A DNA stretch of 5,318 nucleotides, taken from Caedimonas varicaedens. GTDB lineage: Bacteria; Pseudomonadota; Alphaproteobacteria; Caedimonadales; Caedimonadaceae. A model generated the notes under the pieces. The model saw only the letters and a list, made by a program, of their open reading frames with translations. It was not told the origin of the DNA and did not search any database. Both the position numbers and the translations under genes were made by a program. The stretch spans positions 1 to 5,318 of the forward strand of contig BBVC01000047.1 in assembly GCA_001192655.1 (NCBI GenBank), written 5' to 3'. Positions 1,439-5,318 of this stretch are shown here, one piece after another (position 1 is the first letter of the stretch; every line of letters begins with the position of its first letter).

Positions 1439-1465
1439 AAAGCCGCACCCGCAGATGCGGCTTTT
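1439..1465. terminator. Rho-independent-type hairpin, plausibly bidirectional, between the convergent hsdR and 683..1189 genes
   Basis: AAAGCCGCA (1439-1447) pairs perfectly with TGCGGCTTT (1456-1464) around an 8-nt loop, cccgcaga. On the + strand the GC stem is followed by TTTT. On the - strand it is followed by TTTGATTT. It lies 87 nt past the hsdR stop and 250 nt past the 683..1189 stop. Confidence 0.55.
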
Positions 1466-1551: not shown

Positions 1552-4500
1552 CTATATCCCGAAATACTTCTCAAAGAATGTACGAAGCTTTTCTAACACA
1601 ACAGATTTTTTCTTCGCGCGGGTGTTATCTTTGGCAAACATAGGAACGGGAGGCAGAATTCCAGCAAAGGCTGTCCCCGTTGATTTAAGTTCGCCATCGC
1701 GGAAGGCGTTGGCTATAAACTTGCGTGTTTGCTCCGGCTTCAGGCTTTCTTCCTCAATAATCTTTTCAAGATCGTTCTGCCGGCTCTCGTCCGCGAATAT
1801 CCGCCAATCCCGATCAACATCGGTGTTGGCGTTCAGAGTATAGATAAAGCGTTCTATCAGCTCCTTCTTGCTGCGCAATTCCAGATTTGAATTCATCGCC
1901 TTGTCGATCGTAGTCAGGATCTCCTTATCCTTCATATGCGACTTATGGTACTTGGCGACCAGTTGTAGGATATAATCAATGTTGATGGTTACTTGTTTGA
2001 CCAGCTCTATCTCAAAAACAATGTCATCGTTGATGATTTCCTTTTCTTCGTCCTTGTGTTTGCGAAGTTTATCGTAGAGGTCAAGATATGCGCTTTGATA
2101 GTCTTGGAAATCTCGTTCTGACAGGATTTCGTTGCCTTCAAACTGGTCAAACGATGCAAGGATATTCCGAAGCCGCAGGATCGCGCCGTAGAGCCTGATA
2201 AAGTCCTTTTCTGCCTGCTCACCTTCTATATGAACCGGCAGAGGAAACCGCTCAATTAACTCTGCGATAAGCTCTTTATAGCCGCGTTGATGCGCGCCGT
2301 CTTTGTCCCAGCAATTGTAATAATCATCGTAGGATTTCAAGAGGACGATGCCACCAGCCTCTTTATTTCCGAAGATGGAAATCGCTTCGTTGGTGGCCGT
2401 TTCCAGATCACGAAAACAGACAATGTTACCGAAGGTTTTAACCGAGTTCAGAATGCGGTTGGTACGGGAAAATGCTTGTAACAATCCATGATGACGCAAA
2501 TTTTTATCCACCCACAGGGTGTTCAAGGTTGTTGCGTCAAAGCCAGTCAGGAACATATTGACGACGACCAACAAATCAACCTCGCGGTTTTTAACCCTCT
2601 GCGAGAGGTCTTTGTAATAGTTCTCAAACTTATCGGCGCTGGTATCAAAATTGGTTGCAAAAGACTGGTTATAGTTCGCAATCGCCTGATCCAGAAAATC
2701 GCGTGAGGATTTATCCAAGGCAGTAGTATCAAAATCCTCGTCTGGCAAAATGCCATCCTCGCATTCGGCTTCGTTCGCGCCAAAGCTGTAAATTAGCGCG
2801 ATTTTGAGTTCCGTATTCTTGCTCTTGAATTCCGCGTAATATTTTTTCGCAGTTTCGATGGAGCTGACAGCAAAGATGGAATTGAAGCCCGCCAGCCGCT
2901 TGCCCTTCAGGGTGTAGCGTTCATTCCGTTTGGTCTTCTGGTCAAAGTGTTCAAGGATATAGGTAGTAACCTGCGCTATCCGTTCGGGCGCATTGGTCGC
3001 GCGTTCAATATCAATGGCGCGAACCTTTTTATCCTTAATATTGTTTTTCATTTTCAGGGTGTTGATATAATCAATCCTGAAGGGCAGAACATTCTCGTCG
3101 TTGATCGCGTCAACAATCGTATAAGCGTGCAGCTTTTGCCCGAATGCCTGTTCTGTGGTTTTCAGCTGCGGATTGCCGCCAGAACCTGAATTCACAGCAA
3201 AGATTGGCGTGCCCGTAAAACCGAAGATGTGATATTTCTTAAAGGCTTTGATGATTTTCATATGCATATCCCCGAATTGGGAACGGTGGCATTCATCAAA
3301 GATAAGCACGATATGCCCATCAAAAACGTCATGCCCCTTGTTCTTGGAGATAAAGCGATCAAGCTTCTGGATCGTCGTGATGATGATCTTGGCGTTTGGG
3401 TTGGCAAGCTGGCGCGCTAGGATCGCCGTGCTCGTGTTTGAGTTGGCCGAACCTTTCTCAAACTTGTCGTATTCCTTCATCGTTTGATAGTCAAGATCTT
3501 TGCGATCCACGACAAAGATCACCTTATCCATGCCGTCAAGGCAGCTGGCAAGCTGTGCGGTTTTAAAGCTGGTCAGCGTTTTACCGCTGCCTGTTGTATG
3601 CCAGATGTACCCACCTGCATCAATCGTCCCAAGCTGTTTGTGGTTCGTTGACATCGCGATCTTGTTAAGAATTCGCTCTGCTGCCGCAATTTGATAAGGA
3701 CGCATTACCAAAAGCAATTTATCGGTGGTGAACACGCAAAAGCGCGTCAATACGGAAAGTAACGTGTGCTTGGAACAGAATGTTTTGGCAAAATCCACAA
3801 GGTCGGAAATTCGCTTGTTCTTGCCATCTGTCCACCAATTGGTGAATTCAAAGCTGTTGCTGGTTTTCTTGCCAGACGTTTTTCCCGCCTGTTCCTTCAG
3901 GTGTGTGCTGCGGGTGGTGTTGGAATAGTATTTAGTATGTGTGCCATTCGAGATCACAAAAAGCTGCACATACTCAAACAGCCCGCTATCTGCCCAGAAG
4001 CTATCCCGCTGATAGCGATTGATCTGGTTAAAAGCCTCGCGGATGGCAACACCGCGCCGCTTGAGTTCAATATGAACCATCGGAAGGCCGTTGACGAGAA
4101 CAGTGACATCGTAGCGGTTTTTACGCGCGCCTTCGGTCTCGTACTGATTTATGACCTGCACCGCGTTGTTATGAATGTTGTCCTTATCAAGAATGCGAAT
4201 GTTCTTCGTCGTGCCGTCATCGCGGCGGAGGTTATAGATATAATCCTCCTGAATTTTTGTTGTCTTTTCTTCGATGGAATCGTTCTTGCAGGCAAGATAG
4301 TTGTTTAGAAGCTGCGTCCATTCGTCATCGGAAAATGTGGTGTTATTCAGACGCGAAAGCTGAGTACGGAGGTTTTGTAAAAGATCATCATTGCTTCTGA
4401 TGGTCAGATATTCATAGCCGTTTGTCTGTAAGATGCGGATGAATTGAACTTCAAGCTCCGACTCAGACTGATAGCCTTGTGCGCCTGTATCAACAGGCAT

Positions 4501-4557
4501 ATATTCAGCAACAACCGTGCTGTTCGGGTTTTCGGCGGTTGTATTATAACTGGTCAT
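1552..4557 (-). CDS. hsdR: Type I restriction enzyme R subunit (HsdR), full length, EcoR124I-like (family IC-like)
   Basis: The ORF is uninterrupted (ORF track 1552..4560, starting at TTG). I prefer the ATG at 4557-4555, which lies 7 nt after AAGAGG (4570-4565). The translation has a PD-(D/E)xK nuclease core 'RYDVTVLVNGLPMVHIELKRRG' (D codon 4108-4110, E 4066-4068, K 4060-4062) followed by QxxxY ('NQINRYQ'). It also has SF2 motif I 'TGSGKT' (3577-3594, checked by hand), a DEAH-type motif II 'DECH' (3286-3297, checked by hand), 'FGFTGTPIF', 'MFLTGFDA' and 'QAFSRTNRI'. Long blocks such as 'GGYIWHTTGSGKTLTSFK', 'FVVDRKDLDYQTMKEY' and 'FDECHRSQFG' match my memory of EcoR124I HsdR. The stop is TAG at 1552-1554. 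Confidence 0.95.
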   Translation of the reverse strand: MTSYNTTAENPNSTVVAEYMPVDTGAQGYQSESELEVQFIRILQTNGYEYLTIRSNDDLLQNLRTQLSRLNNTTFSDDEWTQLLNNYLACKNDSIEEKTTKIQEDYIYNLRRDDGTTKNIRILDKDNIHNNAVQVINQYETEGARKNRYDVTVLVNGLPMVHIELKRRGVAIREAFNQINRYQRDSFWADSGLFEYVQLFVISNGTHTKYYSNTTRSTHLKEQAGKTSGKKTSNSFEFTNWWTDGKNKRISDLVDFAKTFCSKHTLLSVLTRFCVFTTDKLLLVMRPYQIAAAERILNKIAMSTNHKQLGTIDAGGYIWHTTGSGKTLTSFKTAQLASCLDGMDKVIFVVDRKDLDYQTMKEYDKFEKGSANSNTSTAILARQLANPNAKIIITTIQKLDRFISKNKGHDVFDGHIVLIFDECHRSQFGDMHMKIIKAFKKYHIFGFTGTPIFAVNSGSGGNPQLKTTEQAFGQKLHAYTIVDAINDENVLPFRIDYINTLKMKNNIKDKKVRAIDIERATNAPERIAQVTTYILEHFDQKTKRNERYTLKGKRLAGFNSIFAVSSIETAKKYYAEFKSKNTELKIALIYSFGANEAECEDGILPDEDFDTTALDKSSRDFLDQAIANYNQSFATNFDTSADKFENYYKDLSQRVKNREVDLLVVVNMFLTGFDATTLNTLWVDKNLRHHGLLQAFSRTNRILNSVKTFGNIVCFRDLETATNEAISIFGNKEAGGIVLLKSYDDYYNCWDKDGAHQRGYKELIAELIERFPLPVHIEGEQAEKDFIRLYGAILRLRNILASFDQFEGNEILSERDFQDYQSAYLDLYDKLRKHKDEEKEIINDDIVFEIELVKQVTINIDYILQLVAKYHKSHMKDKEILTTIDKAMNSNLELRSKKELIERFIYTLNANTDVDRDWRIFADESRQNDLEKIIEEESLKPEQTRKFIANAFRDGELKSTGTAFAGILPPVPMFAKDNTRAKKKSVVLEKLRTFFEKYFGI

Positions 4558-5318
4558 CAAGCGGCCTCTTGGAAGCTGAGCAGCTTATCGCGATAATATT
4601 CGTATTGCTGACGGCGTGCGGTGATTTCGGCGGGCAAGCCTTCTGAAATGTCATTCACCAGCACATCGAATTTATCGAGGATAGAGACAATGCGTTCTTG
4701 CTCTTCCATTGAGGGAACTGGGATTTTGAAATTTTTGACCTTTGCGTCAGATATCGCCGGATAGCCTGCGCCTTCCTGATTGCGTTCAACATAATCATTA
4801 AATGCGGTGGTCGTTATAGAGAAGTACAAATATTTCGGCAAAACTTGCTTTTTATCGGCGCTAAGCACACAAAACCCAGTACTACAAATTTGACCATCAT
4901 ATTTCTTCGGAATATAGCAGAAACGTTTCAATGTTGGGCGCGTAGTTCCGAAAATAATATCATCTTCTAACACGATTTGTTGCGCGCGACTTGGCGCATT
5001 ACTGGCATGGATCTTTTGCGTTTCAGTGATCTCGTTGTTTTCACGACTAACAGAAGACAAGTCAATGTAGGCGTAATCTTTGCCTGCATTTTCTTTCCAT
5101 TTGATATTATTTGTCTTCATGCAAATTTCACCCATTGTCTTCCAGCTTACCCCCCCCCTAATATTATCGTTGAAGCTCAATAGCTTATCACGATAGTGGC
5201 TATATTGCTTGCGACGGGCTTCCAGCTCTGCTTTCAGCTCTGCTTTCAGCTCTGCTTCCAGCTTTGTGAAAGCATCTAACACTTTGACAATCTCTTGCTG
5301 GATATAGCTAACAACATA
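4557..5318 (-). CDS. hsdS: Type I RM specificity subunit HsdS, C-terminal part (central conserved region + TRD2 + distal conserved region); 5' end lies outside the window
   Basis: The ORF track starts this ORF at GTG 5282, but the frame stays open to the window edge (5318..5283 reads YVVSYIQQEIVK in frame). The gene is therefore truncated by the window and is not a 241-aa protein. The central conserved region is 'LDAFTKLEAELKAELKAELEARRKQYSHYRDKLLSF'. The TRD has typical Methylase_S features ('YIDLSSV', 'PSRAQQIV..DDIIFGTTRP', 'ICSTGFCVL'). The distal conserved region is 'EEQERIVSILDKFDVLVNDISEGLPAEITARRQQYEYYRDKLLSF'. The two conserved regions are also similar at DNA level exactly 600 nt apart (4572..4619 vs 5172..5219, 34/48 identical by hand alignment). 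The stop is TGA at 4559-4557. Confidence 0.9.
   Translation of the reverse strand, partial: YVVSYIQQEIVKVLDAFTKLEAELKAELKAELEARRKQYSHYRDKLLSFNDNIRGGVSWKTMGEICMKTNNIKWKENAGKDYAYIDLSSVSRENNEITETQKIHASNAPSRAQQIVLEDDIIFGTTRPTLKRFCYIPKKYDGQICSTGFCVLSADKKQVLPKYLYFSITTTAFNDYVERNQEGAGYPAISDAKVKNFKIPVPSMEEQERIVSILDKFDVLVNDISEGLPAEITARRQQYEYYRDKLLSFQEAA
4565..4570 (-). promoter_or_regulatory. Shine-Dalgarno (AAGAGG) for hsdR, embedded in the 3' end of hsdS
   Basis: The minus strand reads ccAAGAGGccgcTTGATGacc. AAGAGG lies 7 nt before the ATG (4557-4555) and 4 nt before the TTG (4560-4558). The hsdS stop TGA shares one base with the hsdR ATG. Confidence 0.6.
5150..5158 (-). repeat. Homopolymer: G9 on the coding strand of hsdS (C9 on + strand)
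   Basis: This was read directly. The + strand is 'cttaCCCCCCCCCtaat', and the minus strand is AAT ATT AGG GGG GGG GTA (N I R G G V). It is the longest homopolymer G/C run I can find in the window. Confidence 0.95.
5220..5267 (-). repeat. 12-bp tandem repeat (about 4 units) inside the hsdS central conserved region, encoding TKLE-AELK-AELK-AELE
   Basis: The + strand units are ttccagctctgc (5220-5231), tttcagctctgc (5232-5243), tttcagctctgc (5244-5255) and ttccagctttgt (5256-5267). Period-12 identity is perfect from 5223 to 5257. Confidence 0.9.

Follow-up and report, generated by a model that had tools for sequence, protein, structure and literature searches.

Does the hsdS gene of Caedimonas varicaedens carry a mutable switch that changes the DNA target of a type I restriction-modification (R-M) system? 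The question is raised by a run of nine G residues within the 3′ part of hsdS on contig BBVC01000047.1 (assembly GCA_001192655.1), which was analyzed here over its complete length of 5,318 bp (the window) and which carries hsdS and hsdR, both on the minus strand. An initial annotation had located the run just past the central conserved region of HsdS and interpreted it as a contingency locus, where the gain or loss of a single base would convert a full-length HsdS subunit into a half-subunit. That interpretation is supported in substance by the comparisons described below. The tract probably serves as a slippage toggle of the kind described for the NgoAV system of Neisseria gonorrhoeae, alternating between a subunit with two target recognition domains (TRDs) and a half-subunit that would pair with itself, with a 12-bp repeat as a second variable.

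On the coding (minus) strand, the sequence around the tract is ...GATAATATTA GGGGGGGGG TAAGCTGGAAGACAATGGGTG, laid out as GATAATATTA-G9-TAAGCTGG. The run encodes R-G-G-V (AGG GGG GGG GTA) in a frame that is open from the contig end at 5318 to the hsdS stop codon, and it is the only homopolymer of at least 9 nt in the window. It begins 19 nt past the final codon for the central YSHYRDKLL motif, in agreement with the initial annotation, and TRD2 follows directly. Only 0.013 runs of at least 9 nt were expected from base composition, and shuffling the synonymous codons of hsdS and hsdR produced a G/C run of this length in 0.5% of trials (P = 0.005). The codons used are minor ones (AGG accounts for 4.6% of the Arg codons and GGG for 18% of the Gly codons in the two genes), and apart from the tract, G/C runs in the coding sequence reach a length of 4 at most. 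On these grounds, the G9 tract is not due to chance.

The source genome belongs to the kappa endosymbiont of Paramecium biaurelia and was assembled as a Roche 454/Newbler draft in 142 contigs (PMC4645214). Because 454 pyrosequencing miscalls long homopolymers and because the protein could plausibly have a Gly-Gly linker, the tract could be regarded as a sequencing artefact or as coincidental Gly-Gly coding, with no special mutability or role. This explanation is extremely unlikely, since 454 errors shift the length of a run by about 1 base but do not make long runs, the codon choice and the synonymous shuffle speak against coincidence, and tracts of G8 to G17 are found at the same linker site in many phyla, in both frame states.

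Simulated slips reproduced the consequences that had been worked out by hand in the initial annotation. With G8, the product ends ...NDNIRGG and the TAA stop codon stands straight after the tract; with G10, it ends ...NDNIRGGGKLEDNG and a TGA stop codon follows seven codons past the tract. A G7 allele acts like G10 and a G11 allele acts like G8. In both the G8 and the G10 simulation, the truncated half-subunit would retain the whole central conserved helix. The central and distal conserved regions of HsdS are 51% identical, and YRDKLLSF ends both, such that the truncated end (...YRDKLLSF plus 7 residues) resembles the natural C-terminus (...YRDKLLSF plus 4 residues). This resemblance suggests that the half consisting of TRD1 and the helix is a complete structural unit. 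The earlier claim that a slip leaves TRD1 plus the central region thus stands with respect to the point of truncation, just past the central region; it presupposes an intact 5′ half, which would lie beyond a contig end that lacks the P-x-P-P motif.

The system is classified by homology as EcoR124-like, that is, as a type I R-M system of family IC, because HsdR and HsdS both match EcoR124 proteins; the same family had been named in the initial annotation. HsdR matches EcoR124I HsdR (2w00/4bec; phmmer E = 1e-260), Pfam EcoR124_C (1.5e-67), and TIGR00348 hsdR. The alignment of the HsdS fragment with EcoR124II HsdS (7bst_A; E = 7.5e-38) covers residues 157-397 of the latter, and the fragment also matches Pfam Methylase_S (E = 3.5e-23). 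The translated 241-aa open reading frame (ORF) at 4557-5282 (minus strand) exactly matches a Caedimonas varicaedens protein at NCBI. In the alignment, "SFNDNIRGGVSWKTMGEI" stands opposite EcoR124II "SFKE---GEVEWKTLGEI," with the tract-encoded NIRGG opposite "KE-GE," just ahead of VEWKTLGEI. The tract therefore encodes a short hinge insertion just before the start of TRD2. The central conserved region also contains the 12-bp tandem repeat, of which two related loci, L001 (2.9 copies) and L008, each have one unit fewer than the window. The product of the repeat, LEAE/LKAE, corresponds to TAEL in EcoR124I/II and to LEAT in NgoAV. In these known systems, the copy number of the 4-residue repeat sets the spacer length of the target, as in EcoR124I versus EcoR124II.

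The precedent cited in the initial annotation is real, as a poly-G tract does alter hsdS specificity in NgoAV (PMC9577141; PMC6789123). In hsdS1, the poly-G tract lies at the 3′ end and results in an HsdS of 208 aa with activity on GCAN8TGC, and the loss of one G fuses hsdS1 with hsdS2 and alters the specificity (PMC9577141; PMC6789123). The ngoAV tract ranges from 6 to 9 G among 92 strains (PMC9577141), and the count of LEAT repeats co-determines NgoAV specificity (PMC6789123). As far as the account in PMC7383803 goes, truncation of this kind left the enzyme active, with a symmetric target that was new, in NgoAV, EcoDXXI, and EcoR124I, which are all of the family-IC cases tested.

By analogy with these systems, one G gained or lost in replication would shift the reading frame, and translation would end at the TAA (G8) or TGA (G10) stop codon, 0 to 7 codons past the tract. 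The predicted product would comprise TRD1 and the central conserved helix, with an end like the natural C-terminus. Two such halves would then pair, bind two HsdM subunits, and methylate or restrict a symmetric target, as described for NgoAV, EcoDXXI, and EcoR124I, while the in-frame allele would yield a subunit with both TRDs, directed to an asymmetric bipartite target. The 12-bp repeat would be an independent length variable that sets the spacer. We infer slippage of the tract in Caedimonas, the presence of an intact TRD1 and of hsdM upstream, and activity of the half-subunit.

If slippage occurs but yields an inactive truncated HsdS, the result would be an on/off switch in which methylation and restriction are both lost and no second specificity is gained. 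Such a switch is unlikely. It draws on the analogy behind the half-subunit, on the unseen TRD1, and on the 47% of 92 gonococcal strains whose ngoAV locus was predicted to lack an active enzyme (PMC9577141), but it fits poorly with a truncated product that retains the whole central helix and mimics the natural C-terminus and with the activity of comparable truncations in NgoAV, EcoDXXI, and EcoR124I, as stated in the same account (PMC7383803).

The ATG codon just past the tract, preceded by GGAAG at a 3-nt spacing, was read in the sequence as the initial annotation had reported it, and the pair is a possible weak restart site for a TRD2-only product. Further downstream, the hsdR start codon and the hsdS stop codon overlap by 1 base (TGATG; window 4555-4575), with AAGAGG located 7 nt upstream, and this overlap suggests that translation of hsdR is coupled to that of hsdS. 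Both observations bear on the proposal that translation reinitiates at ATG 5135 and that the two halves reassemble into a split subunit, leaving the specificity unchanged or mixed and the coupling to hsdR intact. The stop codons of both shifted frames indeed lie within 11 nt of this ATG (TAA 11 nt upstream and TGA overlapping as ATGGGTGA), and coupled translation is suggested by TGATG, but the Shine-Dalgarno-like GGAAG has a spacer of only 3 nt, and a split subunit is very unlikely. Because of the same overlap, HsdR synthesis could also be affected if translation ended early at the tract. It is quite improbable, though conceivable, that a stop at the tract, which would leave about 590 nt untranslated, lowers HsdR and so provides relief from self-restriction, or that a TRD2 half is made and up to three S-dimer specificities arise (1+1, 1+2, and 2+2). 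A drop in HsdR would bring such relief because the genome is unprotected at the new target just then.

With the HsdR sequence of the window, 80 loci (976 kb) were retrieved from assemblies representing one genome per species. The closest HsdR matches were alphaproteobacterial, with 80% and 76% identity to proteins in Alphaproteobacteria metagenome-assembled genomes (MAGs) and 74% identity in a Bartonella species, followed by 72% in a MAG labelled Caedibacter sp. and 71% in a Rickettsiaceae MAG. Matches of this kind accord with the origin given for the contig. Across the 80 loci, 12/15 G/C runs of at least 8 nt fall 7-25 nt past the hsdS central motif. The linker represents about 0.3% of the DNA, which gives a binomial P of 2.5e-28, with the caveat that the loci are not fully independent. 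The tracts occur in both frame states: in frame as G8 (L022, L023, L025, L027, L029, L040, and L049) or G9 (L032) and out of frame, with a stop codon close behind, as G13 (L033), G17 (L042), C8 (L071), or C9 (L074). Both conserved motifs were identified in 47 hsdS genes, and 12 of these have a linker repeat. The two halves of the gene are in different frames in five cases, and all of these (5/5) carry a linker repeat; none of the 35 repeat-free genes is out of frame.

Repeats other than homopolymers occupy the same linker. The hsdS gene of L008, whose HsdR is the closest relative (80% amino acid identity), carries (AG)9, and L050 carries (AG)10 out of frame; (GCAA)5 is found in both L003 and L004. 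L001 and L002 are the same element from two metagenomes and contain an (AAGCAAC)n linker repeat, with 7.9 copies in L001 (5559-5613) and at least 13 copies in L002 (1-100), whose contig starts inside the repeat. The difference between them is a direct length polymorphism of the heptanucleotide repeat. These four loci, L001 to L004, are the closest TRD2 relatives of the window. An interrupted tract, G5TG4, occurs in L046. In a group of closely related alleles, one and the same set of codons reads G8 in L088, G3AG4 in L090 as well as L091, and GAGGG, which is shorter, in L089. The latter pattern looks like the "locking," or decay, of a tract by point mutation. At the protein level, Gly-Gly is present in the linker of 34/116 TRD2-related homologs.

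Three proteins (P0025, P0039, and P0066) first resembled split hsdS2 products; P0025 is no proof of a frameshift, as its contig starts inside the heptanucleotide repeat. Two of the related loci differ in gene content. In L001, HsdM (L001:2527-4923) is a 798-aa protein that carries a NADAR domain at its N-terminus, joined to HsdM_N and N6_Mtase, and the island also holds Mrr_cat and PRTase-CE genes. In L008, an additional 498-aa ORF (L008:4503-5999) is located between hsdS and hsdR.

The contig ends inside hsdS. The window reads Y-V-V-S-Y-I-Q-Q-E-I-V at a position where 109/109 full-length homologs have I-P-x-P-P-L-x-x-Q-x-E-I-V at the end of TRD1. The last 15 nt, at 5304-5318, therefore do not resemble hsdS; they may mark the border of a repeat or insertion sequence (IS), the junction of a rearrangement, or a 454 contig end of poor quality. 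The window holds neither hsdM nor TRD1. An HsdM from the same assembly (P0177, 82% identical to the HsdM of L008) sits on a separate contig of 5,844 bp; the order hsdS then hsdR is seen directly, with hsdM outside the window. These findings raise the prospect that hsdS is a relic, already broken just upstream of the central region (e.g., by one of the numerous IS elements of Caedimonas), and that the tract has been inherited without a present function. The contig end inside hsdS, the replacement of P-x-P-P by YVVSY, the separate hsdM contig, and the fragmentation of a genome with about 100 transposase-family best hits (142 contigs; PMC4645214) are consistent with such a relic. On the other hand, 253 codons of hsdS and 1,001 codons of hsdR are intact, an HsdM is encoded in the assembly, 15 bases at the end of a 454 contig carry little weight, and a break in a contig need not be a break in a gene. 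A relic is, on balance, rather unlikely.

The slippage toggle remains the preferred explanation, and several points weigh against it. The gene is possibly interrupted or truncated upstream, since the last 15 nt lack the P-x-P-P present in all 109 homologs, and both TRD1 and hsdM are off the contig. The count of nine is uncertain because of the 454 chemistry, and the true count may be G8 or G10. The statement in the initial annotation that the gene is "currently in the full-length state" was not supported as worded, given the homopolymer miscalls of 454/Newbler data and a TRD1 that lies outside the window. The activity of the half-subunit is known only by analogy. The other alphaproteobacterial HsdR relatives with a readable central motif (L009, L012, L014, L015, and L017) have no linker repeat. 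The collections searched contained no second sequence of the organism and no relative more than 77% identical. An exact-protein look-up of the window HsdR, with either a TTG or an ATG start, returned no other contig, a megablast of the whole window against plasmids returned no match, and a metagenome scan for the exact tract flanks with a variable G count found none. Finally, for an obligate endosymbiont of Paramecium, the fluctuating selection that is usual for contingency loci is not obvious.

The positions of the features discussed above are collected in Table 1.

Table 1. Features of hsdS and hsdR in the 5,318-bp window
Feature	Position	Strand	Remarks
hsdS, 3′ part	5318-4560	-	253 codons intact; stop TGA 4559-4557; contig ends inside the gene
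Contig end, TATGTTGTTAGCTAT	5304-5318	-	Last 15 nt; encodes YVVSY
Central conserved region of HsdS (IQQEIVKVLDAFTKLEAELKAELKAELEARRKQYSHYRDKLLSF)	5172-5303	-	Coiled-coil helix; aligns with the EcoR124II central region
12-bp tandem repeat, 3.8 copies	5218-5263	-	Encodes LEAE/LKAE inside the central conserved region
G9 homopolymer (C9 on the plus strand)	5150-5158	-	Codons R54(GG)-G55-G56-V57(G); candidate slippage site
TAA stop, G8 allele	5147-5149	-	11 nt upstream of ATG 5135
GGAAG (5143-5139), 3-nt spacer, ATG (5135-5133)	5133-5143	-	ATG in the TRD2 frame
TGA stop, G10 allele	5128-5130	-	Overlaps the ATG region (ATGGGTGA)
TRD2	4620-5138	-	Pfam Methylase_S, fragment residues 61-233; opens with V-x-W-K-T-M-G-E-I after the tract
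Distal conserved region of HsdS (EEQERIVSILDKF...ARRQQYEYYRDKLLSFQEAA) and TGA stop	4557-4706	-	
hsdR	1552-4557	-	Intact, 1,001 aa; Pfam HSDR_N, SWI2_SNF2, T1R_D3-like, EcoR124_C

The remainder of the window was surveyed for other features. The region downstream of hsdR (1-1551) contains no recognizable gene and has a GC content of 41%, compared with 46% in hsdR. Two ORFs in this region, of 196 aa (599-1189) and 132 aa (288-686), matched no NCBIfam family; a Pfam scan of the 196-aa ORF returned a sub-threshold match to DUF3806 alone. A TGCGAT motif occurs about five times within positions 1-110, and a strong terminator-like hairpin is located at 1439-1464 (minus strand), about 90 nt past the hsdR stop codon. 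An Rfam scan of the window found no RNA family, and a promoter and terminator scan of the window gave hits no more numerous than in shuffled sequence. Just upstream of the tract is a weak sigma-70-like match (5163-5191, minus strand; GTGATA, a 17-nt spacer, and GATAAT, 9/12 positions), which is probably meaningless, with fewer such sites in the scan than in shuffled sequence.

If the tract is active, an obligate "kappa" endosymbiont would have a stochastic switch of restriction and methylation specificity, and such switches would extend to intracellular symbionts. To our knowledge, experiments have shown a switch of this type in Neisseria only, and predictions have mostly concerned host-adapted pathogens. 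In intracellular symbionts, phage-like and plasmid elements are important because they encode the R-body killer trait. More generally, EcoR124-like hsdS genes from very distant phyla, candidate-phyla bacteria among them, share a repeat hotspot at the hinge that joins the central helix to TRD2. The same site carries a warning for annotation, in that hsdS genes split at the hinge are likely to be switch states and not dead genes.

Compared with EcoR124I and EcoR124II, the window shares HsdR homology, the central region, TRD2, and distal region of HsdS, the order hsdS then hsdR, and a 4-residue repeat in the central region. The EcoR124 linker (SFKE-GEVEWKTLGEI) has no homopolymer, whereas the linker in the window is 3 residues longer and tract encoded. 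The half-subunit variants of EcoR124I and EcoDXXI are laboratory mutants and not natural switches.

A close parallel is NgoAV of N. gonorrhoeae FA1090, described by Adamczyk-Poplawska et al. (2011 and 2022) and Sanchez-Buso et al. (2019). Both systems have a coding-strand poly-G tract that closely follows the central conserved region and precedes TRD2, a frameshift that results in a truncated TRD1-only HsdS (predicted for the window), a central 4-residue repeat as a second variable (LEAT in NgoAV and LEAE/LKAE in the window), and an EcoR124-like hsdR. An HsdS homolog of Neisseria meningitidis with LEAT repeats is 61% identical over the fragment comprising the central region and TRD2, and we infer from the LEAT repeats and the poly-G tract that its gene is the NgoAV ortholog. 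It has G8 located 18 nt past the YxYRDxLL motif, compared with 19 nt in the window, and its linker reads "FDNQIGGGADG," compared with "FNDNIRGGVSW." Alleles with GG and with GGG in the linker both occur in Neisseria. The systems differ in host, as the window is from an alphaproteobacterial endosymbiont of Paramecium, and the HsdR of the window is only 46% identical to that of Neisseria. As assembled, the window has G9 and keeps the frame, whereas in FA1090 the gene, with G7, is truncated by nature, and hsdS directly adjoins hsdR in the window, whereas RhuM-like and AAA_13 genes are inserted in the meningococcal locus. The NgoAV switch was shown by experiment, and the system in the window is known here from sequence alone.

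The survey of Atack et al. (FASEB J 2020, PMC7383803) provides a broader frame. As far as its text goes, simple sequence repeats (SSRs) were found in 7.8% of the hsdS genes in REBASE and lay "invariably" between the two TRDs, with G[n], GCAA[n], and AG[n] tracts among those listed, and switching between full-length and truncated HsdS was proposed (PMC7383803). The G, GCAA, and AG repeat types also occur at the linker in relatives of the window. Neither Caedimonas nor Caedibacter appears in the main text of that study (PMC7383803), and many of the relatives described here are uncultured candidate-phyla bacteria (Saccharibacteria, Parcubacteria, and others) that we did not see named in those parts of it. 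The hinge hotspot agrees with the REBASE survey, to the extent of the account given there, and the present loci add cases to it (PMC7383803). Thus, the mechanism is already known from NgoAV-like hsdS genes with SSRs, and the Caedimonas gene is a new example.

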